Origin: Promethearchaeota archaeon | Lineage (GTDB): Archaea; Asgardarchaeota; Thorarchaeia; Thorarchaeales; Thorarchaeaceae | Length of the DNA stretch: 32,000 nt | NCBI GenBank assembly: GCA_027031765.1 | Contig: JALVPN010000067.1 | Location: forward strand, 1-32,000 | Reading direction: 5' to 3' | Part shown: positions 6,884 through 31,999 of the stretch, piece after piece | How positions within the stretch are numbered: position 1 is the stretch's first letter | How the letters are laid out: each line of letters opens with the position of its first letter | Notes under the pieces: model-generated | What the model was told of the DNA's origin: nothing | Database searches by the model: none | The model's input: the letters and a program-made list of their open reading frames with translations, nothing else | Made by a program: the position numbers and the translations under genes

Positions 6884-6892
6884 ATTTAATTA
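6884..6892 (-). promoter_or_regulatory. Candidate archaeal TATA box for the NMO-ADH-AOR-PAP2 cluster
   Basis: TAATTAAAT on the minus strand in a GC-rich background, 24 nt upstream of ATG 6859. Confidence 0.55.
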
Positions 6893-6929
6893 CTGGGTGT
6901 CCGCTGACGAGCGTGCATGACATGCGAGG

Positions 6930-9900
6930 CTAGTAGTCATGGTCATCCCCGGGGCCACGGCTGTGGTCACTATTACCATCACTGTAGCTGTCACTGTCAC
7001 TGTAACTATGACTGTCAGTGTAACTGTCATCGTCACTGTAACTGTAACTGTCATCCGGGGACCCATCACTAGGACGACCGGTATGGTCTGGTGCGCCCGC
7101 CGCGTCATGGTGGGGACCGTCAGATGTCGCAGCAAAGGCCCTGCCCGTGTCGCTGTGGCCGTCCTCGGTGGGCCGTCCCTGTGTCTGGTCGTCAGGCTGG
7201 TGCTCCACGGTGACCCCCGCATCTGCAATCTCCTGTAGCGAGGTTGGGGACTGGTGCTTGCGGAGGTAGCCAGTAGCCCTGTCAGCAGCCTTGAGTATCT
7301 TTGAGGTGACAAAGGGGATGACGACGAGGAAGAGCACCGGCATGAGTACGATGACACCAAGAGCATAGCTCCGGAGAAAGTCCATGGTGCTGACGGTGGT
7401 ACCCGCGAGCACTACGAGGAACATGAAGAACTTGATGCGGATCGAGGAGCCAGTCTTGTCCACCAGGTCCATCCGCTCCTCCTCCAAGACGGATGCTGGT
7501 GTGCCCGACTCTCGCATGTGGTCGAGCTTTGCAATGCTCCTGCTCAGCTCCTTGTAGAGGTTGACGACCACTACCACTATGGACGACACGTAGGTGACGA
7601 ATACCGTGAGCATTATTGTGGGCACTGCAACACCACCTACCGTGAACGCCTCACGCAACACGTAGTATTCGAACCACTCGATGTGCTTGCCCCACGCGAA
7701 GATCTGTAGCACCACGAGCGGCACGAACACCAGGTGCCAGAGACCAAAGACCATGCGTCGTGTGCTGACATGTCCGGTGTCGAGGATTGCAGAGTTCGCG
7801 TCCCGGTAGAGCCAGATGCCATAGAGGAGGACCGAGATACCGAGTAGGAGGACGCTCTCAGCCACTGCCAGCGAGTACTGGCCCGCCTCTGCGGACAGCA
7901 CCGAGTGCAGGAGGACGAGGCCGGCAAGGGCAACAATGGACACGTATATGATGTCCATGCGCCTTATGCTGCGGTGCAGGTCCTTGCCCGTGCCGCGGGC
8001 CGAGATTGACGAGGACACCTTGAAGTAGATGAGGAACCCGACCAGACTTATGAGGAAGGAGAGCCCGCTACCAAGTGTGAAGGTCTCGGGGCTCATCGAT
8101 ATCTCGGGCGGTCGGACGCCGATGTAGACCGCCTCGACTGTGCTGCCGGGCTCGCATACCGTGCCGCTTGCGCTGACATGGATGTCGTAGGTGCCGTGCC
8201 CCTCAGCCGGTAATGTGAACACTGCCACGTACTTGCCGGCAGTGGATGTTTCCGTCGCATTCAGCACCTGGTCCTGGAAGGACACTGTGATGGAGAGGTT
8301 GCTGAGCGGTTCGCCATACAGGTCGGTGGCCCATACCGTTACTGCGACCGTGTCGCCCTGCACGGGGGTCTCCGGTGACAACTCCACGACCAGCACCGGC
8401 TGCCCCTTCACAATGATGAGACCCTGTACGGTGTGACTGTAGTCGACCAATGGATGTGCAATCACCACCATGTACTCGTATTGACCGGGCTGCCAGCCCA
8501 CGGTGGACAGTGTGGTCACGAATGTGCCGTTGTCAAGGCCATCCAAGTTAGACATGGAGTCGCGTATCACAATGCTGACCGATATGTTGGGGACGGGGTT
8601 GCCAGCAGTGTCAAAGAGGTTGACGACAAAGTGAATACTGTCCTCGCCCTGCACGAACTCCGTAGAGTTGGAGGGCGACACCACACTGACAACAGCCTCA
8701 CTGCGCACCCCTACTGTCGTATGGTAGTCACTCGGTACAACGTACCGCCCGCTGAGCTGTACGACCAGGGGATACTCCCTTGGCGGCCCTGAAACGGGCA
8801 GTGTGACGGACAGCGTGTTGCTCCCAGAGTGGTGTCCCGAGAGCACCTGGCCCTGGAATGTCAGCGTCCAGTTGAACTCTGTCACCGGGTTCATGTACAG
8901 GTCGGTTGCCACGACCGTGAACGTCACGACATCGCCGACACGCACGGGCGTGCCATACTCGACACTGATGGTAGCATGGCCAGTAACGACCAGTTCAAGG
9001 TACTGTTCCACTGCGTACAGGTGGCTGTGGACCACTGTGAGACGTACGGAGTACGTGCCGAGTGGCAGGCCGACAGTACTGATGTCGAGGGCATAGACAC
9101 CAGGCGATACTGCCACAAGCCGGTATGAACTGCCATGGAGGTGGATGGTACAGTTGACGCCCGCTATCAGGTCACCAATACCATCTGTCACATTGACAAT
9201 GAAGGGGACACTCGTACCCTGCGCTGTGACACTCCCCTGGGCTGGTGAGACCACGGTCACATTTGCAGTACTGTACACGTGTACTGTCCACGAGCTGTTC
9301 ACAGTGGCCACGTGGGGTCCAGAAACAGTCAGGGAGAGGTCATACACCCCTGGCGCCACTGCGGGGGTCCAGCCCCACACGAGGACATAGTCATCGGACG
9401 TACCGGAAACGGTAATAGAGTCACCAAAGGCAATGGTGTAGGAGAACCCATTGACAGGGCTACCATACTGGTCGGTGACCGTGAACTTGAACTGTGCGGG
9501 CTCGGTGTTGCGCAGTGGGCTGGGATCAGTGACGAGGCTGACCGTGGGAGTGCCTTGGAGCAGGAGCTCACCTGTTGTCGCCCATTCGGCCATGAACTCG
9601 TGTTCGACAGACACCGTGTAGTTGTACGTCCTCAGAGGCAGGCCCACAGTGGCAACAAGGCCGGAGTACACACCGTCCCCGACCTCGTCCAGGAAGTACG
9701 TACCACCATTCAGTGACACATGCACGGTTGCTCCGGTGACCAGGTATCCGGCGAGGTCACGCAGCACGAGTGTGAAGTTCACAGCATCGCCTTGGGCAAC
9801 GGTCACACTGGGGGCCGGTGACACGAAGGAAACATTGCTCATACCAAGGACTCTGATTGTGGTGGTCTGCAACGACAGGTAGACATAGTCACCGACAAAG

Positions 9901-12900
9901 GACATGTTGAGGACGTGCTCACCCGGTGGGAGGTCTGGCTGGAATGTCCAGGACAGTGAGTACGAGTTTGAGGTGCCTGAGGTACTGATGGTGCCACCGA
10001 GCACGAGGCTGTAGTTGAAGGTGGAGAGCGGGTTCCCATATATGTCCGTCACCGTGAGGTTGATGGTCGTGGTCATATGGTTCAGGACAACGTCAGGGAT
10101 GTCGACGGTCGCCTCAGCCCATCCAAGGACTGTGAGGTTGACGCTGACAGTATGTGAGAAGAGATAGTAGTGCTCAACAGACACGACCACAAGGTACTGA
10201 CCGGGGGAGTAGCCCGTGGTATCCAAGGTCACGTTGTAGTCCCCGGTGGGCCTGTTCTGGAAGGACAGGCTCTCTGGGCTCACTGCGGTGACAGTGGCAT
10301 CGGACACGACCTCTCCGTACCAGTCGGTCACGTTGACGACCATGTGGAGCTCCTCGCCCTGTGCTATCGTCCATCCCGGTGTGACCGTGAGTGTCACAGA
10401 GGCCTGTGAGAACACCTCGATGTCGAAGGCCTCCACATAGTCATAGGCGAGGGTTGCACCAGCATACACCTTGAAGGACTGTGGGCCAATCGTATAGTTC
10501 GCAGTGACGTTGACACGGTACTCAGCACCACCCACGTGTGATGCCGTGAAGTTCACACCGTTGACCTCGACCTTCACCCAGCCACCTGACGGTACCTCCT
10601 CGAACTCGTCGTAGAGCAACACAGAAACAGAGAAGTCTGTGCCCGCTGTGACGACATCGTCATATGTGACCCCCGGGTCGAGGGCACCACGTACGGCCAT
10701 ATGGTACGACCCAAAGGATGTGCCGTCAACGAACGGGTGGGTTACAAATACCTCGACCGTGTAGTTCCCAATCGGGAAGTCAGCCGTGTCGTTGAGGAAG
10801 TAAGCGCCGGGCGCAACTTCGTCGAGGCGCAGCTCTGTGCCCGCGACCTCGACCCTGACGGTCGCGTTGACTATGGCGTTGTCAAACGGGTCGGTGATGT
10901 TGAGCCATGTCGTAAACACAGAGTACTGGTCGACGACCACAGGAGACTCCCGCGCAATCACCAGCTCAGAAGCCACCACAGACACAACACGTGTGGCATT
11001 GGCCGGTCCGACCGCAAACCTGTGCTCGGCCCGGACAAGGAGTGTGTGGTGACCGGGCGCCACCGTCACGTTGTCAATGACCGTGTAGTAACCAGAACTG
11101 GACGGTGCAGCGGGGTACTCGTGGCCATCGAACAGCACCGTCACATTGGCATCACTGATCTGACTGCCGAAGCTGTCGGACACTGACACGTTGATGTGTA
11201 GCGACTCGGTCTGGAGCACCTCGGACTCTGAGAACACGCTCACCGTCAGGGGGGAGTGCACCTCGACGGCACCTGGCAGCTCGATGGCGACGTCGGTGTA
11301 GTGGGAGTGCAGGACGGAAACGGTCAGGTTCACGAGCCCTATTGGCCAGTTGCACGGGATGTCCCCAGTGTAGTTGCCCGATGGTGCGTCATACACGAGG
11401 CCAAACACCTGAGACGAGACGCTGCCACTCTGGAGGTAGTAGGCGGTCACCGTGACCGACGAGTCGGCGACCACTTCGTCGTAGGCGTTAGTGACCGTGA
11501 TGTCCGCTGACACCACGCTGCCCTGGACCACGACCGAGGCGCTCAGTCCCACGTCCACATCCAGTCCATAGAGCAGGTCGATGTTGCGTACGACACCGAA
11601 TGTGTGGCGGGCACGGAACACAGGGAACGTAGCAATGTCAGTCCCGGCGCCAGCATCTACACTGTCCACGGGAATCAGGTTGTACAGGACACCAATCTCC
11701 GCGTCACAGTCTATGGAACCGTCCATGCCAACGGCGTAGAGGAAGTTGTCAGAGGTCGACAGCACGAGTTCGCAGGCCTCGTCACCATCAAAGTCCAGAA
11801 CCGCACCAGACACAGGCTCAGCATCGCTCACATATCTTGACCACACGGTGTTCCCACCACTCGATGGGGCAATCATGGTAAGGTATCCGGACTCGTCCAA
11901 GAGCAGCAGCTCGTCAGTGTTGTCAGCATCAGCATCGTATGTGAAGACACGGGTGGCATGGCTCCCAGACCAGGTGTACACAGGCCCGCTCCCGACCACC
12001 ATAGTAGTGTCGCCAATCATGCAGATATAGTTGACTGGAGTGTCACCACTCCAAGAGTGGAAGACTGCTGCGAGAGTGTTGGCCTCCGTACTGCCGTTGC
12101 GGAACGGCAAGACCACCAGTGGGGTGTCACCAACAGCACCACCGGGGGACGCGTAGTCAAGGTGGCGGTACAGTGAGAGAGTGTTGGCCTCGTACAGGTC
12201 AATGGCGCCAGAGTCCCACAGGAGCGCAATCTCTGGGTGCTCACCACTCAGTACGGCATGTGAAGTGCCCACCAGTGAGGCATTGCCCGCGACCGTCGTC
12301 GTGTTCAGCGAGAACTGGTCATCGACACGGAAGAGGTACCTTGCCGTCCGGTTGGCCACGACGAAGTGCAGCTCCTCTGTCTGGTCACCATCATCATCAA
12401 ACACCTGGAGCATCCGACTGCTCATCATTGGTCGCGCCGGCAGCTGCAAGGTCCGCCATAAGGTGTAGTTGGTCCCATGGTAGGCCCACATGAAAGTCAT
12501 GCTCTTGTTCGTGGCCATCACAATGGGGTCGCGTATAGCGTCGCCATCTATGTGCGCAAAGTACACTTCAAACGCGTCCTTGTCCCACGCACCGGTCACG
12601 TTGATGTCACTGATGTGAGTACCATTGGTATAGTGGACATGCACAACTGCCTGCTGAGAGGGAGTGTGCGTGACGATCCCGGCCATTATGTCGTCCCCGA
12701 AACTCTCGTCCGAGACCGCCAGGACATGTAGACGGGCCTCGTCGATAGTGGCATTGTAGTCAGCATGGCTTGCGAAGTGCCCCTCAACAACGTACTGGTG
12801 AGGACTCGACACATTCCCGTACCGGTACGTGTTGAGGTACTGGTCCACGACCTCAATGTAGTACGACTGCACACCGGGCTCCATGTTGGTCATCAGGTAG

Positions 12901-14465
12901 TAGAAGCGGTTGTCCGAACTCGGGACCATCTCCGACTCGGCATGGTCGGCCTGTACCACGCCACTGACGGGGGAGATGAAGATGGTTGCACGGTCTATTT
13001 TTGACTCGTCCAGTGCTGTGATCTCGAACTTGACGTAACTGTCATAGATGGTCGGGTGCTGTGGCGACAGAGGGTGGACCGTGACGTCGGGGGGCTGTGT
13101 GTCGCTCAGCAGGACGCCGATATATGACGAGAGTACTGCAACATCAGACCTGCCGTCGACGTTGAAGTCGTATGTGATGACCTGAGTGAAGGGACCGGCG
13201 AACCGTGGCTCCTCATAACCCGTACTACCGTCTAGCCCGCGGATGATGGACAACTGACCGCGCGGGCCTTCGAGGGCCACATCCGTATTGTTGTCCGCAT
13301 CCAGTGCTGCGGCGTCAAACCCACGTGTGGTAGAGCCGGGGCACATGTCAACCGAACGCACGAGGTTGTCGCCAGTAGCACCGTCGACGAAGATGATATT
13401 GGAGGACTTGGCAGGCACACAGACGAGGTCTTCGTCCGCATCACCGTTCAACTGGCCGGCTCTGAGGGTCATATTGGTCTCGGGCTCCAAATCCCTTTCG
13501 AACAGCAGGCTCAGTGAGGAACTGTATGTCCTGAGACGTGAATGCGAGTCACCACTGGTGTCGACCGACGTGACGGCGATGCAGTCCAGCACGTCGGGCC
13601 CGTCGTAGCGGATGCCATCGGTGCCAATGTTGTCCGAGACCGTGGTCGAGCCAATGACGAGGCCGGTCCCATTGATGATGGTGATGCGCATTTCAGATTG
13701 ATACGTGTGGACGAGGCCGATCTCGTGCCTCGGAGAGCTCGTGAAGTTGCCTGCGAAGGCGCGATTGATCTGCCCGTCCGCGTCGTAGAAGCCGATGGCA
13801 GCGCCTGAGTTGAGGTCGACTGTTTGAATCAGGTCGTGGCTGTATACGGCAGCGTCACACATGGAGTCACCATCAAAGTCGCCTGTGAACACCTCGAACG
13901 CCTGTGTGACGTTGCAGGCATATGTCCGGAGAGTATCATTATCGCAGTTGATGAGGAGGAGGTACGGGCCCGTGCCGTTGCTGAACATCACGAGGAACTC
14001 TGTATAGCCGTCGTCATCAACATCGGCCCCGGTCAGGGTCTTGTGGAGAACGGTACCTGTCGTGCTAGTCCCAATGGAGTATTCGGTGCTGTTCACTAGG
14101 TTCTTGAAGTGGAACACACCATCATGGATATATCCTATACCGGTACCAATCTGAGTCCTCCCCACTGCAATAGACTCGACTGTATACGGTAGCTTGACCT
14201 TCAGTACATTTGACGAGGGGGACGTACTGAGATGGGGGACTGGTGTGTCCTGCTGTCCACGAACAGCGGTGGGTACCGCGCTGGACGGTGCCATGAGCAC
14301 GATAAGGAACAGGCCGAACAACAGGACCTTGATAATATCACGGACACTTGCTGAGTAACAGCGTGCGCATGAATGCCGGCACAACCTCAATGTCAGATGA
14401 CGCCTCCGTTGGTCAGACGGGCTGTGTCGTAGGATATGGGACAGACCTATGCCGCCGTCGCCCAA
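6930..14465 (-). CDS. Giant cell-surface protein: signal peptide, two FG-GAP/VCBS-like beta-propeller regions, Ig-like repeats, 7 TM helices and a low-complexity cytosolic tail
   Basis: Uninterrupted 2511-codon ORF. The start is uncertain (TTG 14465 or TTG 14390). Hydrophobic leader IIKVLLFGLFLIVLMAPSSA; Ca-loop motifs DVDDDG, DFDGDS, LNGDAD, DFNVDG, DDDGDQ, DADADN, DFDGDE; 12 ~95-aa beta-rich repeats; seven hydrophobic segments at ~7290-8084; many N-x-S/T sequons. Confidence 0.88.
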   Translation of the reverse strand: MGDGGIGLSHILRHSPSDQRRRHLTLRLCRHSCARCYSASVRDIIKVLLFGLFLIVLMAPSSAVPTAVRGQQDTPVPHLSTSPSSNVLKVKLPYTVESIAVGRTQIGTGIGYIHDGVFHFKNLVNSTEYSIGTSTTGTVLHKTLTGADVDDDGYTEFLVMFSNGTGPYLLLINCDNDTLRTYACNVTQAFEVFTGDFDGDSMCDAAVYSHDLIQTVDLNSGAAIGFYDADGQINRAFAGNFTSSPRHEIGLVHTYQSEMRITIINGTGLVIGSTTVSDNIGTDGIRYDGPDVLDCIAVTSVDTSGDSHSRLRTYSSSLSLLFERDLEPETNMTLRAGQLNGDADEDLVCVPAKSSNIIFVDGATGDNLVRSVDMCPGSTTRGFDAAALDADNNTDVALEGPRGQLSIIRGLDGSTGYEEPRFAGPFTQVITYDFNVDGRSDVAVLSSYIGVLLSDTQPPDVTVHPLSPQHPTIYDSYVKFEITALDESKIDRATIFISPVSGVVQADHAESEMVPSSDNRFYYLMTNMEPGVQSYYIEVVDQYLNTYRYGNVSSPHQYVVEGHFASHADYNATIDEARLHVLAVSDESFGDDIMAGIVTHTPSQQAVVHVHYTNGTHISDINVTGAWDKDAFEVYFAHIDGDAIRDPIVMATNKSMTFMWAYHGTNYTLWRTLQLPARPMMSSRMLQVFDDDGDQTEELHFVVANRTARYLFRVDDQFSLNTTTVAGNASLVGTSHAVLSGEHPEIALLWDSGAIDLYEANTLSLYRHLDYASPGGAVGDTPLVVLPFRNGSTEANTLAAVFHSWSGDTPVNYICMIGDTTMVVGSGPVYTWSGSHATRVFTYDADADNTDELLLLDESGYLTMIAPSSGGNTVWSRYVSDAEPVSGAVLDFDGDEACELVLSTSDNFLYAVGMDGSIDCDAEIGVLYNLIPVDSVDAGAGTDIATFPVFRARHTFGVVRNIDLLYGLDVDVGLSASVVVQGSVVSADITVTNAYDEVVADSSVTVTAYYLQSGSVSSQVFGLVYDAPSGNYTGDIPCNWPIGLVNLTVSVLHSHYTDVAIELPGAVEVHSPLTVSVFSESEVLQTESLHINVSVSDSFGSQISDANVTVLFDGHEYPAAPSSSGYYTVIDNVTVAPGHHTLLVRAEHRFAVGPANATRVVSVVASELVIARESPVVVDQYSVFTTWLNITDPFDNAIVNATVRVEVAGTELRLDEVAPGAYFLNDTADFPIGNYTVEVFVTHPFVDGTSFGSYHMAVRGALDPGVTYDDVVTAGTDFSVSVLLYDEFEEVPSGGWVKVEVNGVNFTASHVGGAEYRVNVTANYTIGPQSFKVYAGATLAYDYVEAFDIEVFSQASVTLTVTPGWTIAQGEELHMVVNVTDWYGEVVSDATVTAVSPESLSFQNRPTGDYNVTLDTTGYSPGQYLVVVSVEHYYLFSHTVSVNLTVLGWAEATVDIPDVVLNHMTTTINLTVTDIYGNPLSTFNYSLVLGGTISTSGTSNSYSLSWTFQPDLPPGEHVLNMSFVGDYVYLSLQTTTIRVLGMSNVSFVSPAPSVTVAQGDAVNFTLVLRDLAGYLVTGATVHVSLNGGTYFLDEVGDGVYSGLVATVGLPLRTYNYTVSVEHEFMAEWATTGELLLQGTPTVSLVTDPSPLRNTEPAQFKFTVTDQYGSPVNGFSYTIAFGDSITVSGTSDDYVLVWGWTPAVAPGVYDLSLTVSGPHVATVNSSWTVHVYSTANVTVVSPAQGSVTAQGTSVPFIVNVTDGIGDLIAGVNCTIHLHGSSYRLVAVSPGVYALDISTVGLPLGTYSVRLTVVHSHLYAVEQYLELVVTGHATISVEYGTPVRVGDVVTFTVVATDLYMNPVTEFNWTLTFQGQVLSGHHSGSNTLSVTLPVSGPPREYPLVVQLSGRYVVPSDYHTTVGVRSEAVVSVVSPSNSTEFVQGEDSIHFVVNLFDTAGNPVPNISVSIVIRDSMSNLDGLDNGTFVTTLSTVGWQPGQYEYMVVIAHPLVDYSHTVQGLIIVKGQPVLVVELSPETPVQGDTVAVTVWATDLYGEPLSNLSITVSFQDQVLNATETSTAGKYVAVFTLPAEGHGTYDIHVSASGTVCEPGSTVEAVYIGVRPPEISMSPETFTLGSGLSFLISLVGFLIYFKVSSSISARGTGKDLHRSIRRMDIIYVSIVALAGLVLLHSVLSAEAGQYSLAVAESVLLLGISVLLYGIWLYRDANSAILDTGHVSTRRMVFGLWHLVFVPLVVLQIFAWGKHIEWFEYYVLREAFTVGGVAVPTIMLTVFVTYVSSIVVVVVNLYKELSRSIAKLDHMRESGTPASVLEEERMDLVDKTGSSIRIKFFMFLVVLAGTTVSTMDFLRSYALGVIVLMPVLFLVVIPFVTSKILKAADRATGYLRKHQSPTSLQEIADAGVTVEHQPDDQTQGRPTEDGHSDTGRAFAATSDGPHHDAAGAPDHTGRPSDGSPDDSYSYSDDDSYTDSHSYSDSDSYSDGNSDHSRGPGDDHDY
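6962..7054 (-). repeat. Degenerate hexamer (xACAGT) coding repeat encoding an Asp/Ser/Tyr-rich tail
   Basis: Minus strand GACAGT TACAGT TACAGT GACGAT GACAGT TACACT GACAGT CATAGT TACAGT GACAGT GACAGC TACAGT, translating to DSYSYSDDDSYTDSHSYSDSDSYSDGNSDHS. Confidence 0.85.
8110..11564 (-). repeat. 12 tandem Ig-like (Big-like) domains within the giant 7TM protein
   Basis: Recurrent ~93-99 aa units of the type V.V.D.YG.P(V/L)..A.V.V...G..Y.L.....G.Y......PG.Y.L.V.(H/G), counted by hand from the translation. Confidence 0.75.
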
Positions 14466-14496: not shown

Positions 14497-14510
14497 TTTT
14501 AGTTATATCT
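14497..14510 (-). promoter_or_regulatory. Candidate TATA region for the giant 7TM surface protein gene
   Basis: AGATATAACTAAAA on the minus strand, the main AT-rich patch upstream of the ORF. Confidence 0.4.
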
Positions 14511-14934
14511 TGAATGAGTCCGTTCGAAAAATGAGATGGCCTGCGGGAGCATGCTAATCTACTCGCGTACGGATTCGTCCGGGCCCTACAGTGGTGATGC
14601 GGCGGTGAGGGCCGGTACTCCCAGTACCACTTCTCCGCGCAGTGGACCCCGGCCGTCTGCACCGTCGGGATGCCGCCGCAAATGGTCGAGGCCCCACCAT
14701 GGACCACATACGACCCATGTCTGTCAGCCCCTTCATGGACATCCCCAACATACCCGGTCCTAGCAGGGACCATGCCAGGACCTGGATGGTGTCCGGCAGT
14801 GCTGTCCGGAATCCTTTGCCAACAGGAGGAGGACCATGCACCGGGCGGCCGGTTTCCCTGCGAAAGGGGCACTATGCCTAACAGAGCACTTATGTGAGTT
14901 GTGTTGACAGACAAGTTGGGATTCGAGCGCAGTG

Positions 14935-27100: not shown

Positions 27101-30100
27101 TGGTAAGGCCGTCATGGTCCACGTCGAGGTAGTAGTCTGAGGTGCCATTTGCATATGTGGAGTACCTTGACGCATTGAGGCCCAAGAGGCGGTCCTCCGA
27201 ATAGTCGTCAAGCCCATCACGGTCGGTGTCCTTGCGGCGCGGGTCTGTACCGATGAGGAACTCATCATGGTCTGTGAGCTGGTCGCCATCAGTATCACTC
27301 ACCAGCGGGTCCGAGGTCACAGTGAAGTGCTCAATGCCCTCTGAACTGTTCACAATGGAGACCGTGAAGCCGAGGACTTCGGTACCGTCCGGGAGGTCAT
27401 CATCGTCGCTGTCCATGTCACCGGGCGAGGTCTTGTAGACGTACAGCTCGTTGCCATTCGAGAGGCCATCACTGTCCGAGTCGAGGTCATAGTCAAGGAT
27501 ACCGGGGGTGGTCATATTGGTCGTGGGGTCAGTACCGGTGACCTTGACCTCGGTGTAGTCGTCAATCTGGTCACTGTCGGTATCGTTCACAAGGGGCAGC
27601 GTGCCATAGTCGTTGACCTCCTCACCGTCCTTCAGGCCGTCACTGTCGGTGTCAGGGCGCAGTGGGTCAGTGTGCCACGTGAGAACCTCCTCACCGTCCT
27701 TCAGGCCGTCACTGTCGGTGTCAGCAGTCGCAGGGTCTGTCTCCCCAGGGTCGACCACGCCGTCACCATCGATGTCCTCGCCGACCTCGCCGGGGTCCCA
27801 CCGCCCATCGTGGTCGGTGTCGTTCCAACCGTCTGGCAGCTGGTCGTTGTCGGTGTCCCAGAGCGTTGCATTGAGGCCCACATCCACCTCTAGGCCGTCA
27901 CGCAACATGTCGCCATCCGTGTCCCATACCAGCGGGTCAGTGTTGTAGGTGCGTATCTCCTGCACGTTTGTCAGGCCGTCATGGTCCTGGTCGTCATTGG
28001 CGTCCCGCACACCGTCGTCGTCCGAGTCTGCGTCCAGAGGGTCGGTCATGGTCTGGCGCACCTCCTCGGCATCGGTCAGCCCGTCAGAGTCCGTGTCAGC
28101 GACCCGTGGGTCACAGCCTGACGCGTACTCGTCTATGTTCGTGAGGCCGTCACCGTCGGGGTCCTCGGCACCATCAAGGGTGCCGTCGTCGTCAGTGTCA
28201 TTGTAGCACGGGTCGGTCTGCGTCTCCCGTACCTCGAACCAGTTTGGCAGGCCGTCCCCATCGTTGTCGTACTGGTCGTCACGTGGCTGGCCGGAGCCGT
28301 GTGTGTACGGTGTCGTAGGGTCGGTCCGGGTCACATAGAGCTCCACACCGTTCGACAGACCATCACCATCAAGGTCCTCATCATAGTCGCCAACACCGTT
28401 GTCGTTACTGTCCGGGTCATTTGGGTCGGTACCAAGATCTGTGTACTCGTGGCCGTCCTTGATGCCATCACCATCAGTATCGGGGACCCGTGGGAGGGTA
28501 TGGGTCACGTTCAGCTCGACTATGTTGGACAGGAAGTCCAAGTCGGAGTCCTCCGCGTCATCACGCGTGCCATCGCGATCGGTGTCTGCGAGTGCGACAT
28601 CCGTCCGTGTGAGATATATTTCCTGACCGTTGGTCAGCGTATCATTGTCATAGTCATAGTCATAGTCGTTGGTCGCGTTGGTCGGGTCGAAGGTGTAGGC
28701 ATTGGTCGGGTCGAACAGCTGGGAACGGTCAATCTCGTCCTTATCAAGGACGCCATCGCCGTCTGTGTCAACGGATGTGGGTGATGTACCGTACTTGTTG
28801 ACCTCGATGCCATCACCGACAGAGTCCCCATCAGTGTCGGACTCTGTGAGGTTGGTACCATATACATTGACCTCGTCATAGTCGCTGAGGCCATCGACAT
28901 CCGAGTCGTTCGAGTTGGGGTTGCTGTGCCAGACGTTGACCTCATCACCATCTGACAGCATGTCGCCATCACTGTCGGGGTTGGTGGCGTTGGTGTTGTA
29001 GGTGTTTATTTCGGCATAGTCGTCAAGGCCGTCACCGTCCGTGTCCGCACTTGACACGTTCGTCCCGTATGTGACGTACTCGGCATAGTCGTCAAGGCCG
29101 TCGCCATCAGTGTCGCTGTCCCTGGGGTCTGAGTGGACGACTGCCACCTCCTCGTAGTCGGTGAGCCGGTCGCCATCCGTGTCCTCATTCGTGGGGCTCG
29201 TCTTGTAGACCTTGACCTCTTCACCGTCCGACAGCCCGTCATCGTCTGAGTCGGGGTCGTGGACATCGCTGCCCACCGAGATCTCCTTCCAGTTGGCGAG
29301 GCCGTCACGGTCCTCGTCATCGTAGTAGTCTGACACCCCGTCGTTGTCACTGTCCACATCATTCGGGTCCGTGCCCGTTATCCTGACCTCCTGCAGGTTC
29401 GTGAGGCCATCGCCATCATTGTCGTCCTGTCCATCATCGACACCATCGCCGTCCGTGTCAGCCTCTGTGGGCGAGGTCTGTGTGATGTTGTTCTCCTCGT
29501 AGTCGGTGAGGAGGTCGCCGTCCGTGTCGCGCCTGTTCGGGTCGGTCCCGAGGTACACCTCCTGCCAGTCGGTCAGGCCATCGCTGTCCGAGTCACTGTC
29601 GTTCGGGTCGGTGCCGAAGGTGACCACCTCATCAAAGTCATTGAGTCCATCGTCATCACTGTCGGGGTCAAGTGGTGATGTCCCGTACTGCAGCACCTCG
29701 TCGCCATCGCTGAGCCTGTCGTTGTCAGTGTCCGGGTCATCGACGAGCGTACCCTCAATGAGGGCCTCCCTCGCATCGGCAAGGCCGTCACGGTCATTGT
29801 CGCGCCCATAGGCCCTCACAGAACCACCATTCGTGCCCACGACAAACTCGTAGTTCCCGTCGGCATCGAGATCGCATGTCCCAAGCACACCGGAGAAACC
29901 CACTATGTCCACTCCAGTGACCAGGTAGCCAGAGGCATTATACAGGGTCACAGTACCGCCCGTACCAACAAGCACCTGTGGGTCTGCCAGACCGCCGATA
30001 TTGGCGACCCCCACCACGTTCACCTGGGCACTAAGAGTCCTGTTCCACACTTGGAGGCCTGACGCGTTGTACACACGGAGGGCGCCTGCGGATGTACCAG

Positions 30101-30986
30101 CCACAATCTCGTCGGCACCGCCTGTGAGCAGTTGCGCGACCTTGAGACCCGTGATGCTCTCATTCAGGAGTAGTGTCCACACGGGTGTACCATTGGCAAG
30201 GCGCACGTACACATCACCGTGCGAGTTGCCATATGCGATGTCCGCCGACGCCGAGCCAGTGAGGTTACCACTGCTCACTGCACGCACACCGTATACGGTC
30301 GTGTGGGAGAAGACGGCCGTGCCATTGGGCCGCAGCAGTACGAACTGACCCGAGTCAGAGCCGGTGAGGACCTCAGAATAGGAGTCACCATCGAGGTCGC
30401 TGGCCGACAGGGCACGTACCCGGCCACTGACAGTATGGTTCCACAACTGGGTGGAGTTCAGATGGTACGCATAGACGGTACCATCGTCGCAGCCCGCAAC
30501 GACCTCCTGTGGCGAGCCGGCATCGAGCTGGGCGCCAGCCACAACATTCACTGGACTGGGCAGTGTGATGTTGGTGAGCAGCTGTGCGTTGTCGTCGTAC
30601 ACGACCAGCCCACTCGCTGTGCCCACGACCAGTTCGTCCTGCGGGTCGGCATCTGCTGACACGAGTGCGATGCCGTAGCCAGCAGCACCGAGTGCGGTCG
30701 TCCAAAGACGCGTGCCGTCCTGGTCGAAGACAAAGAGACTGCCGTTGTCTGTGACCACCGCGACCTCTGAGTAATCATCTGTATCGAGGTTGCCAGTGAC
30801 GATGGCGTTCACACGGTTGCCGGTCGAGTTGGACCACACCGGGGCGACCTCGAACGGGGCGATAGCGGCGTAGGTGGTGCCCGTTGACACAGCGCTGTTG
30901 CCGGCACCCATGTGCGAACCCTGCTGGACGCCTGCGAGGACACACAAAAATAGGGACAGTAGTATGACCAGACGGCGGACTTTCAT
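24198..30986 (-). CDS. Giant single-pass surface protein: signal peptide, FG-GAP/PQQ-like beta-propeller, 77 thrombospondin-type-3-like Ca-binding repeats, TM and cytosolic beta-sandwich
   Basis: ATG 30986 gives MKVRRLVILLSLFLCVLAGV (2262 aa; the ORF-track start 31019 is less likely). About 8 blade motifs (LDTDDYSEV, LDGDSYSEV, LDADGNYEF); DxDxDGLxDxxE repeats; TM WGFAVMRVVLAVVVLSVVG followed by RKVAERWRRR. Confidence 0.9.
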   Translation of the reverse strand: MKVRRLVILLSLFLCVLAGVQQGSHMGAGNSAVSTGTTYAAIAPFEVAPVWSNSTGNRVNAIVTGNLDTDDYSEVAVVTDNGSLFVFDQDGTRLWTTALGAAGYGIALVSADADPQDELVVGTASGLVVYDDNAQLLTNITLPSPVNVVAGAQLDAGSPQEVVAGCDDGTVYAYHLNSTQLWNHTVSGRVRALSASDLDGDSYSEVLTGSDSGQFVLLRPNGTAVFSHTTVYGVRAVSSGNLTGSASADIAYGNSHGDVYVRLANGTPVWTLLLNESITGLKVAQLLTGGADEIVAGTSAGALRVYNASGLQVWNRTLSAQVNVVGVANIGGLADPQVLVGTGGTVTLYNASGYLVTGVDIVGFSGVLGTCDLDADGNYEFVVGTNGGSVRAYGRDNDRDGLADAREALIEGTLVDDPDTDNDRLSDGDEVLQYGTSPLDPDSDDDGLNDFDEVVTFGTDPNDSDSDSDGLTDWQEVYLGTDPNRRDTDGDLLTDYEENNITQTSPTEADTDGDGVDDGQDDNDGDGLTNLQEVRITGTDPNDVDSDNDGVSDYYDDEDRDGLANWKEISVGSDVHDPDSDDDGLSDGEEVKVYKTSPTNEDTDGDRLTDYEEVAVVHSDPRDSDTDGDGLDDYAEYVTYGTNVSSADTDGDGLDDYAEINTYNTNATNPDSDGDMLSDGDEVNVWHSNPNSNDSDVDGLSDYDEVNVYGTNLTESDTDGDSVGDGIEVNKYGTSPTSVDTDGDGVLDKDEIDRSQLFDPTNAYTFDPTNATNDYDYDYDNDTLTNGQEIYLTRTDVALADTDRDGTRDDAEDSDLDFLSNIVELNVTHTLPRVPDTDGDGIKDGHEYTDLGTDPNDPDSNDNGVGDYDEDLDGDGLSNGVELYVTRTDPTTPYTHGSGQPRDDQYDNDGDGLPNWFEVRETQTDPCYNDTDDDGTLDGAEDPDGDGLTNIDEYASGCDPRVADTDSDGLTDAEEVRQTMTDPLDADSDDDGVRDANDDQDHDGLTNVQEIRTYNTDPLVWDTDGDMLRDGLEVDVGLNATLWDTDNDQLPDGWNDTDHDGRWDPGEVGEDIDGDGVVDPGETDPATADTDSDGLKDGEEVLTWHTDPLRPDTDSDGLKDGEEVNDYGTLPLVNDTDSDQIDDYTEVKVTGTDPTTNMTTPGILDYDLDSDSDGLSNGNELYVYKTSPGDMDSDDDDLPDGTEVLGFTVSIVNSSEGIEHFTVTSDPLVSDTDGDQLTDHDEFLIGTDPRRKDTDRDGLDDYSEDRLLGLNASRYSTYANGTSDYYLDVDHDGLTNGLEIYGYHSNATAWDTDGDLLSDGTEVHLAGTSPTDMDTDDDGLSDYEEYVVYHTDPTGDDSDADGLDDYHEVYVSRTSPTDWDTDGDLLSDYDEVNTYGTSPNSPDSDGDQIDDRKELELGLDPNNNDTDSDGLSDWEEWKVYDTDGTDPDCDDDGLLDGEEIDHGCDPKNPDTDFDDLKDGDEVNDLGTDPTTPDTDGDHLADNDELWNSHTDPTSSDSDGDGVPDDLDDQDGDGINNYLEIYYYETNCTLVDTDGDMLSDSYEVFTSHTSPRDGDTDDDSIGDWDEIFLFSSDPNRRDTDGDLLEDGEEAYTYHTLLNSTDTDADGVSDYDEIMVFETDALTPDTDGDGLTDGLELNVYNTDPLVMDTDSDLLLDAQEVALGTDPLSPDTDSDGLTDYQEANLTLTNPLRYSTRGDGTSDADWDIDSDGLSNSDELALTHTDPRNPDSDGDGIDDGADDEDRDLLTNYQECYLTGTDPRDKDTDDDGISDLNDDEDGDGLTNIEEILAGTAPRKADTDGDTLSDYDETRVYHTDPLARDSDGDGLDDNREVKDYRSDPLRVDTDDDRLTDYEEVELTGTSPIKNMTHPGVLDSEWDSDGDGLSNIEELRVYGTLPLDPDYDNDDLADGLEVQYGSNPRKRDTDSDSIIDGAEVHLYGTSPTSVDTDNDHLSDYDEVFVYGTNATLSDTDGDGLSDYYEVMVSKTSPTSVDTDSDGLSDREEVTEYHTDPELADTDSDRLSDYDEVNVYHTSPLVNDTDGDGLSDYAELTLYHTSPVSADTDGDGLSDREEVVVYGTNATSSDTDGDMLLDGADFEPTVHWGFAVMRVVLAVVVLSVVGRKVAERWRRREYVTEAEPASPGLEPGMEVLVEYKIRDGKVIFGVAVRNGSKNPMHNVQVVLGVPDLTDVIKSQVVGTIEPGGVSVTEIDFELQPGAEGELVGMVEYDSADGEHRVVNLRPVHIVA
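24640..29801 (-). repeat. Array of DxDxDG(L)xDxxE calcium-binding repeats (bacterial TSP3-like), 77 motifs by manual count
   Basis: Mostly 22-23 aa (66-69 nt) units such as DTDGDGLSDYAELTLYHTSPVSA, interspersed with 12-aa units such as DSDGDGVPDDLD. Confidence 0.92.
27616..27724 (+). repeat. Exact 40-nt direct repeat at 69-nt spacing
   Basis: ACCTCCTCACCGTCCTTCAGGCCGTCACTGTCGGTGTCAG occurs at 27616-27655 and 27685-27724. Confidence 0.9.
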
Positions 30987-31054
30987 GGTGACCGTGCTCC
31001 CGTATTGCTGTACGGACACGGCGAGATGTTGTTATTAGTATTGTGCGAGGACAC

Positions 31055-31999
31055 CTAGTCCTGTGCTGCCCCCTCCCGGTCCCGTCCGCTACGCGACTTC
31101 CACGGCTTGACCTGGAAGTAGTCGAAGAAGTCGGCCTCCACGACGCTGACCTCTTCAAAGGGGATTTCCATCCTGTTGAACGCCCGGATGATTGGGAGCA
31201 CCATGTCAGCAGGGCGGTCCACGAAGAGCTTCAGTGTGTTCCGGCCGGCCTTGGCCATGAAGCGTACCTCGGGGACAGACCAGATACGGTCCACAACCGA
31301 CGGGGATAGGGTCGGCAGGACAACACGCAGGCCCTCACCACGTCCCGGCAGGCTGGCGATAAGGTCTTCGGGTGTACCGAACTGGCTGACCTCTCCGTTC
31401 TCAAGGAGGCAGACGCGGGTACAGTAGTCAACAATCTCAAGGTCGTGACTGATGATCACCATTGTCGTACCGAGCTCGTAGTTCAGCTGCTTCAGGTAGT
31501 TGAGGACCTCATGACGGAGGTGCGCGTCGAGTCCGGTGGTGGGCTCGTCGAGCAGCAGTACTGGGGGGTCGTGGATGAGGCCAAGACAGATGGACACGCG
31601 CTTCCGCTCGCCCCCTGAGAGGCGGCTGACACGCTTTGTCATGAGGTCCTCGTCGAAACCGAGGATGTCAAGGATGTTGCGGGCACGTTCCTCAATCTCA
31701 CGTGGCCGCATCCCGAAGCAACGTCCAAAGAACTGTGCATTCTCAAGGGCCGAGAAGTCGTAGTAGAGTGAGAGGTGTTCCAGTTGTGGGACGTACCCCA
31801 CGAGGTAGCTTATCAGGTCTCTCTGCTTTGTGACGTCGTGTCCACCAACGTAGGCCTTTCCACTGGTGGGACGTATCTGACCTGTGAGGACACGCAGGAC
31901 CGTGGTCTTGCCAGCACCAGACGCGCCGATGATACCGAGGAACTCTCTCTTGTTGGCGAAGAATGAGACCCCTTTCAGCGCATAGAACTTGCCAAAGGC
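31055..31999 (-). CDS. ABC transporter ATP-binding protein (CcmA/drug-export type; 5' truncated by window edge)
   Basis: The frame is open from 31999 (AFGKFYALKGVSF...). Walker A GASGAGKT, Q-loop VPQ, signature LSGGE, Walker B LLLDEPT, H-loop ISHD, plus a C-terminal accessory domain. Confidence 0.95.
   Translation of the reverse strand, partial: AFGKFYALKGVSFFANKREFLGIIGASGAGKTTVLRVLTGQIRPTSGKAYVGGHDVTKQRDLISYLVGYVPQLEHLSLYYDFSALENAQFFGRCFGMRPREIEERARNILDILGFDEDLMTKRVSRLSGGERKRVSICLGLIHDPPVLLLDEPTTGLDAHLRHEVLNYLKQLNYELGTTMVIISHDLEIVDYCTRVCLLENGEVSQFGTPEDLIASLPGRGEGLRVVLPTLSPSVVDRIWSVPEVRFMAKAGRNTLKLFVDRPADMVLPIIRAFNRMEIPFEEVSVVEADFFDYFQVKPWKSRSGRDREGAAQD

Follow-up and report, generated by a model that had tools for sequence, protein, structure and literature searches.

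What kind of membrane element closes a 2,511-residue protein encoded on a 32,000-nucleotide stretch of Asgard archaeal DNA (positions 1–32,000 of contig JALVPN010000067.1, assembly GCA_027031765.1, Promethearchaeota archaeon of the class Thorarchaeia; hereafter the window)? An initial annotation had described seven transmembrane (TM) helices at 7290–8084 with the topology of a G-protein-coupled receptor (GPCR) and had suggested that a cytosolic partner, for example a small GTPase or longin/roadblock protein, docks on the long cytosolic loop between TM5 and TM6 (loop 5). In the reading that we favor, and to which we give an even chance, giant surface proteins of an Asgard-specific family rest on this conserved segment as their membrane base, a receptor-like anchor or transducer but not a GPCR.

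Architecture and orientation of the giant surface protein

The open reading frame (ORF) at 6930–14465(-) encodes, in this order, a signal/anchor segment, an FG-GAP-like region, 12 tandem immunoglobulin (Ig)-like domains, the seven-TM (7TM) module and an acidic tail (Table 1). Hydropathy analysis (Kyte-Doolittle, 19-residue window) revealed eight hydrophobic segments in the 2,511 residues, one N-terminal and the other seven at aa 2128–2386. These seven peaks corresponded one for one to the helices proposed at 7290–8084, with TM1 starting at 8084 and TM7 extending to 7308. In profile scans of the ORF, the 7TM part matched no Pfam family and NCBIfam had no family for the protein.

The N-out/C-in orientation, originally derived from the positive-inside rule, is well supported. 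Lysine and arginine residues numbered 22 on the inside (6, 3 and 8 in intracellular loops (ICL) 1, 2 and 3, respectively, and 5 in the first 20 residues of the tail) versus 3 on the outside (0, 2 and 1 in extracellular loops (ECL) 1, 2 and 3). The family mean was 25.2 inside versus 1.3 outside, and the inside count was the higher one in all 63 aligned relatives. Besides, all 50 N-x-S/T sequons (15.9 expected from composition) were located in aa 63–2127 and none after TM1, and in distant Loki/Helarchaeia relatives TM7 was followed by a double zinc ribbon, a cytosolic domain. The charge bias, the confinement of sequons to the part before TM1 and the zinc ribbons after TM7 thus place the N-terminus outside and the C-terminus inside.

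Starting from the last Ig-like domain, iterative profile building recovered 12 repeats, each with an E-value of 1e-20 to 1e-30, the last of which stops 25 residues ahead of TM1. Pfam detected Big_1 (1.9e-11) plus invasin-D3-like domains in the long N-terminal part. Upstream of the Ig-like stalk, FG-GAP_3 matched the window's copy below the cut-off (E 0.008, 17.2 bits; cut-off 26.9), and FG-GAP/FG-GAP_3 matches are precomputed for many relatives, making the region of aa ~63–950 a candidate integrin-alpha-type propeller. The 50 sequons before TM1, the Ig array and the propeller-like region therefore describe a secreted ectodomain, probably glycosylated, on a C-terminal multi-pass base. The 7TM bundle is the conserved C-terminal base of this giant, probably integrin-like surface protein. 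Integrin alpha chains have N-terminal FG-GAP-type repeats followed by an Ig-like stalk, an order that the candidate propeller (sub-cut-off in the window's copy) and the Ig array would reproduce; they have one TM helix instead of seven, and the Asgard protein has 12 Ig-like domains and no known beta-subunit. Similarly, giant bacterial Ig-repeat adhesins (invasin/intimin, Bap and SiiE type) have long Big_1/invasin-D3-like arrays; however, they are anchored by a beta-barrel, a sortase signal or type 1 secretion system retention and not by a C-terminal 7TM bundle.

Distribution of the module and diversity of its partners in the chain

A word-indexed search identified 96 proteins of 1,409–4,181 aa with module identity of 43–64%, and all named ones were labelled Thor-, Sif-, Odin-, Loki- or Promethearchaeota. 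At the sequence level, such identity in 96 giant Asgard proteins is far beyond chance. When 1.84 billion representatives were scanned exhaustively with HMMER, 119 matched, 43 of them below 1e-30. Among 400 Asgard genomes, 111 had a match, with 56 of 85 genomes in the window's own family and a patchy occurrence elsewhere. Genomes carried one to four copies, nearly always in ORFs of 1,300–3,000 aa (contig-end fragments aside); the window's genome (95% complete) had one. The module was always C-terminal, in proteins of about 750 to 4,200 aa, and most short matches started within the module and looked like contig-end fragments. The only non-Asgard label, P0114 (RKY70245.1, Candidatus Latescibacterota bacterium), came from a 4.4-kb contig of a metagenome-assembled genome and is a probable binning error, because all other named members were Asgard. 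The family is small and essentially Asgard-restricted, and no paper describing it was found in the literature searched.

Ectodomains varied within the family, from FG-GAP/Ig in Thorarchaeia to BNR (BNR_2) propellers in Loki/Helarchaeia, and one complete Promethearchaeota protein had an ectodomain of only ~390 aa. Three tail types were observed: acidic low-complexity, a helical LTK..EL motif and the double zinc ribbon. The same module is joined to varied ectodomains and varied cytosolic tails in the manner of a cassette. Bacterial 7TMR-DISM proteins are likewise prokaryotic N-out 7TM cassettes between variable extracellular and cytosolic parts, but none of the 63 Asgard members matched PF07695, no DISMED ectodomain was detected, and the Asgard tails (zinc ribbon, helical motif or acidic repeat) take the place of kinase, cyclase or phosphatase outputs.

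In orthologues of ~2,500 aa, the tail comprised L.EIAD and, after an acidic linker, a helical motif of ~35 aa, LTK..EL...L...ELKKL.K.QL, also written RLTK.E.I..LP.E.KE..G..EL.KL.K.QL (P0008:2330-2377, P0016:2455-2501, P0012, P0009 and P0036). The window's copy retained only LQEIAD, followed by a D/S/Y-rich end encoded by a tandem repeat, and the helical motif was absent from every frame of the window by tblastn. The orthologue motif is reminiscent of SAP/HeH motifs, with no significant Pfam match. The TCACTG repeat also yields long shadow ORFs at 6890-7366 (-) and 6939-7238 (+).

Predicted structure and conserved elements

An AlphaFold2 (AF2) model of the window's module, based on a 63-sequence alignment, had a predicted local distance difference test score (pLDDT) of 88.7 and a predicted template-modeling score (pTM) of 0.81. 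The module of a Lokiarchaeial relative with 19% identity, modeled independently (pLDDT 85.6, pTM 0.81), showed the same secondary-structure layout. In the window's model, the helices were 29, 34, 34, 25, 37, 37 and 39 residues long, in order, and TM2, TM3, TM4 and TM7 reached 10–16 residues into the cytosol. In both models, TM2–TM7 were helices of 25–39 residues that extended 10–20 residues beyond the membrane on the cytosolic side, and TM3–TM6 formed an up-down four-helix bundle. A homodimer prediction from two module copies with the alignment scored 0.11 against a mark of 0.42, which is evidence in neither direction.

Loop 5 had been described as ~40 aa long and helical-looking. Its helical character was borne out by both models, but it is not a loop: TM5 continues to E2319, a turn is made by S-G-T-P 2320–2323 and TM6 begins at A2324, giving an antiparallel cytosolic hairpin with pLDDT of 92–98. 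When its conservation was mapped across homologs, the TM5-TM6 segment had exactly 41 residues in 63 of 63 relatives (13–100% identity) with zero indels. Also retained were four hydrophobic positions that form a seam (I2314, I/L2327, V2335, I2342) and the charges at E2330, K/R2337, R2343 and K2345. Given the fixed length and the ordered helices, loop 5 is therefore neither disordered nor poorly conserved.

Other hot spots were found on both sides of the membrane and within it. ECL2, a beta-hairpin in both models that adjoins the last Ig domain, was among the best-conserved parts even in distant members (G2259, I2262, W2264, F2265, Y2268 and G2277, followed by P2282 at 97%). The cytosolic end of TM3 carried Y..W.YRD (Y2215, W2218, Y2220, R2221 at 73% and D2222 at 84%), TM5 carried Y.SS (also written Y..SS) and TM6 carried K...FL...G (F2349 at 98%, L2350). 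S2294/S2295 and H2244 were conserved in the membrane, and P2376 in TM7 was invariant.

Comparison with GPCRs, rhodopsins and other folds

We compared the helix arrangement of both models with known structures, the order of neighboring helices being judged through the aligners' scores alone. Foldseek against the PDB gave zero matches at E≤0.001 for either model. Its weak top rows were GPCRs, with E of 0.06–0.3, TM-score of 0.14–0.25 and root-mean-square deviation (rmsd) of 16–19 Å. When the top 1,000 Foldseek entries were realigned with VIA-align, GPCRs and rhodopsins reached Z of 6.4–7.0 at rmsd of 11–16 Å (12.6–13.3 Å for rhodopsin chains). In a Foldseek-independent search of 48,161 chains, none of the 50 best matches of the window's model was a GPCR or rhodopsin, and the Loki model had a single one (GPR55) at rank 41 (Z 6.4, rmsd 14.4 Å). 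The best matches for both models were the designed four-helix bundles 7xge and 4uos (Z 9.5–10.1, rmsd 2.7–3.8 Å), which covered model residues ~92–262, that is, TM3–TM6 with their extensions. Lower ranks were occupied by generic bundles including TM domains of pentameric channels (Z 6.5–8.3), and all matches of this search lay within the tool's stated background for helical proteins. A shape search of the ESM Atlas reached a TM-score of 0.42 at best, and a feature search gave no usable match.

The proposed GPCR likeness was consequently divided: the topology stood, whereas the packing of the two predicted models could not be superposed on GPCR or rhodopsin folds and was unrelated to that of known 7TM receptors. 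The analogy ends at topology, and the fold seems, as far as these tools tell, unrelated to GPCRs and rhodopsins. Profile searches were in agreement: no Pfam 7TM family, Bac_rhodopsin and 7TMR-DISM (PF07695) included, was matched by any of the 63 members, and GPCR families (7tm_1/2/3, Frizzled and others) were absent at E≤1 for the query and all members. The DRY and NPxxY motifs were confirmed to be missing from the sequence, as was CWxP, and E/DRY, CWxP and NPxxY were also missing from the family consensus. The retinal-binding Lys was absent from TM7 (aa 2368–2386). Several other candidates were rejected: TMEM125, DUF2178, DUF2207_C and HlyIII gave single or few weak profile matches with the module and the 63 members, none above noise, and the family profile against PDB sequences produced only matches of E≥0.0076 (a designed channel, and TM5 of the beta-1 adrenergic receptor at 0.038), which we treated as compositional.

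A very diverged member of the GPCR/microbial rhodopsin superfamily, with ICL3 as the binding site of a small GTPase or of a roadblock or longin protein, would share the topology, the ECL2 beta-hairpin, the cytosolic TM5/TM6 extensions and the Y-R-D at the end of TM3. The weak GPCR rows of Foldseek and the sub-threshold beta-1 adrenergic receptor match point in the same direction, and so does the genome, which is rich in such partners (about 25 genes of the Ras family and 13 of the roadblock/LC7 family above the cut-off). Also, further Asgard clusters of 7TM and class C GPCR-like proteins have been reported in a preprint (10.64898/2026.10.28.762692); nothing ties those clusters to this family. 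However, the poor superposition in two independent models, the TM3–TM6 core resembling designed bundles, the uniformly negative family profiles, the missing TM7 Lys and receptor motifs and the fact that none of the GTPase or roadblock genes lies on this contig all argue against this explanation, and we consider it very improbable. True GPCR/rhodopsin homology is unlikely; we regard the GPCR-reminiscent features, namely the Y-R-D, the hairpin in ECL2 and the extended TM5 and TM6, as convergent or coincidental. A GTPase or roadblock partner is in itself possible. Adhesion GPCRs (class B2) have the same overall layout, with a huge, repeat-rich, glycosylated ectodomain followed by seven TM helices in N-out/C-in orientation and a cytosolic tail. 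They differ in having a GAIN/GPS domain, which is absent here, and show no sequence or profile similarity to the Asgard module, whose predicted packing departs from theirs (TM-score ~0.2, rmsd >11 Å) and which has no known link to a heterotrimeric G protein. Seven helices and N-out topology alone are insufficient to call a protein a GPCR.

A different kind of function would be conduction or transport, with the ectodomain gating a channel, a transporter or a mechanosensitive pore; alternatively, the module could be a membrane enzyme that works on the cell envelope. TM3–TM6 weakly resembles the TM domains of pentameric ligand-gated channels, there is weak likeness to mechanosensitive-channel, ATP-synthase-a and LGT clusters (TM-score 0.28–0.42), and the intramembrane S2294/S2295 and H2244 are conserved. 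Yet all such scores fall within the stated helical-bundle noise, the membrane core has no invariant charged or catalytic residue, no family profile matched and the homodimer prediction lent an oligomeric pore no support, so that this explanation appears improbable. Intramembrane protease, archaeosortase and rhomboid were likewise rejected, with no profile match and no invariant Ser/His/Cys/Arg set.

Anchor or transducer

The module is most likely a new Asgard-specific anchor/transducer. It would hold the adhesin firmly in the membrane, and ligand binding to the ectodomain, or a force pulling on it, may be coupled through ECL2 and the helix bundle to a helical cytosolic "foot" and the tail, which could recruit a partner. 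Functionally, the protein would be the archaeal counterpart of receptors such as integrins or adhesion GPCRs, on an unrelated fold. That the module does more than anchor is most likely, because the hairpin has a fixed length, ECL2 lies beside the stalk, the cassette is reused and zinc ribbons have been recruited; from these features we infer coupling between inside and outside.

Several observations weigh against such a transducer. There is zero direct evidence for signalling, enzymatic domains and known signalling outputs are absent from the protein, and a comparison with two contigs carrying orthologues and with 20 other loci revealed no neighbor or operon partner in common with the window. 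The tail depends on lineage and is the product of a low-complexity repeat in the window's genome. Residue conservation could merely reflect the folding and packing of a robust anchor, and only ~62 sequences underlie the two predicted structures. The main rival is a plain anchor, in which the 7TM part only fixes a force-bearing giant adhesin or surface-layer-like protein and the helical extensions are ballast with no partner. Such an anchor needs neither output domain nor conserved neighbor, tolerates a variable and partly low-complexity tail, and agrees with the giant adhesive ectodomain as the constant feature of the family. On the other hand, most archaeal surface proteins make do with a single-pass anchor or one of the PGF-CTERM type. 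Strictly fixed ICL3 length with conserved charges at E2330, K/R2337, R2343 and K2345, the conservation of ECL2 in distant members and the recruitment of zinc-ribbon tails in Loki/Helarchaeia also speak against ballast. We regard a plain anchor as possible, though not probable.

The anchor/transducer reading has a more far-reaching version, in which the family is an Asgard adhesion-receptor class that arose independently of GPCRs and integrins. An integrin-like ectodomain would be combined with a new 7TM fold and a rigid four-helix foot (the TM3–TM6 extensions with the 41-aa hairpin) that recruits cytoskeletal or small-GTPase/roadblock machinery for outside-in signalling or mechanical coupling. 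We consider this version rather unlikely as a whole. Attachment of Asgard cells to partners and contact sensing are central to models of eukaryogenesis. Present in more than a quarter of the sampled Asgard genomes, the family joins a probably integrin-like ectodomain to a conserved base of several membrane passes and to a structured element in the cytosol. If the cytosolic foot has a partner, it would offer a tractable entry to archaeal outside-in signalling; if it is partnerless, giant archaeal adhesins would still have in this module a membrane anchor of a new type. An adhesion-receptor class, if true, would have evolved in the lineage closest to eukaryotes.

Coordinates, gene start and genomic context

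Table 1. Features of the giant surface-protein gene, in window positions; residue numbers refer to the 2,511-aa form. For TM1 to TM7, the residue column gives the hydropathy peaks, which need not coincide with the helix limits in the position column.
Feature	Residues (aa)	Position	Strand	Basis or remark
Whole gene, giant surface protein	1-2511	6930..14465	-	single ORF of 7,536 nt
N-terminal hydrophobic signal/anchor segment	44-62	14280..14336	-	Kyte-Doolittle mean 2.25
N-terminal ectodomain, FG-GAP/VCBS-like repeats (candidate)	~63-950	11616..14279	-	Pfam match below cut-off
Stalk, twelve tandem ~95-aa Ig-like (Big_1/invasin-D3-like) domains	957-2102	8160..11597	-	self-built profile
Membrane-proximal linker, conserved P2120	2103-2127	8085..8159	-	conservation in relatives
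7TM module	2128-2386	7308..8084	-	hydropathy, AF2, charge distribution
TM1	2128-2146	8022-8084	-	hydropathy peak
TM2	2172-2190	7896-7952	-	hydropathy peak
TM3	2199-2217	7806-7871	-	hydropathy peak
TM4	2238-2256	7692-7754	-	hydropathy peak
ECL2, extracellular beta-hairpin, motif G..IEWF..Y........G	2259-2278	7632..7691	-	both AF2 models, conservation
TM5	2273-2301	7554-7631	-	hydropathy peak
ICL3 ("loop 5"), cytosolic TM5/TM6 continuation	2305-2345	7431..7553	-	AF2, alignment
TM6	2346-2364	7377-7430	-	hydropathy peak
TM7	2368-2386	7308-7364	-	hydropathy peak
Cytosolic tail	2387-2511	6933..7307	-	basic juxtamembrane helix, L.EIAD, D/S/Y-rich low-complexity end
Tandem repeat, 6/18-nt, TCACTG x12.5 copies		6979..7053	.	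encodes D-S-Y-rich tail end

The true start of the giant gene is uncertain, with four in-frame TTG candidates at 14465, 14390, 14384 and 14321 (-). The public database version of the protein (2,463 aa) begins at 14321, and the longest form has 48 extra residues, rich in Arg, Cys and His, ahead of the hydrophobic signal segment. A TATA-like AT-rich stretch was observed at ~14500-14512, near the start. No RNA run carrying the sequence was listed; the sole match was a DNA run of a hydrothermal-vent metagenome, which may be the source of the window.

The genes nearby are metabolic or otherwise unrelated: downstream are nitronate monooxygenase-like, Fe-ADH and AFOR genes, and upstream are unknown ORFs, SCP2 and PHP. 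The only synteny detected was local and linked loci of a ~1,840-aa paralogue from related genera, largely on the other strand; it had nothing in common with the window's orthologue group.

Other membrane and surface proteins are also encoded in the window. A second 7TM ORF (21098-22243 (-), 381 aa) had no Pfam match at E≤0.001 and was unrelated to the module (hhalign probability 0.2). An ArsR-type winged helix-turn-helix gene at 19579-20208 (+) forms a co-directional cluster with 17698-19575 and 20205-20975, whose membrane proteins are not assigned to a family and show weak GPDPase_memb and LiaF-like_C matches. A second giant ORF at 24198-31019 (-), with an ABC ATPase gene (31055-31999) directly upstream, encodes 2,273 aa; its N-terminal part is a BBS2/FG-GAP-like beta-propeller, it contains 34 calcium-binding repeats of the bacterial TSP3 type, and its best NCBIfam match was the Myxococcus gliding protein CglD (7.4e-122).

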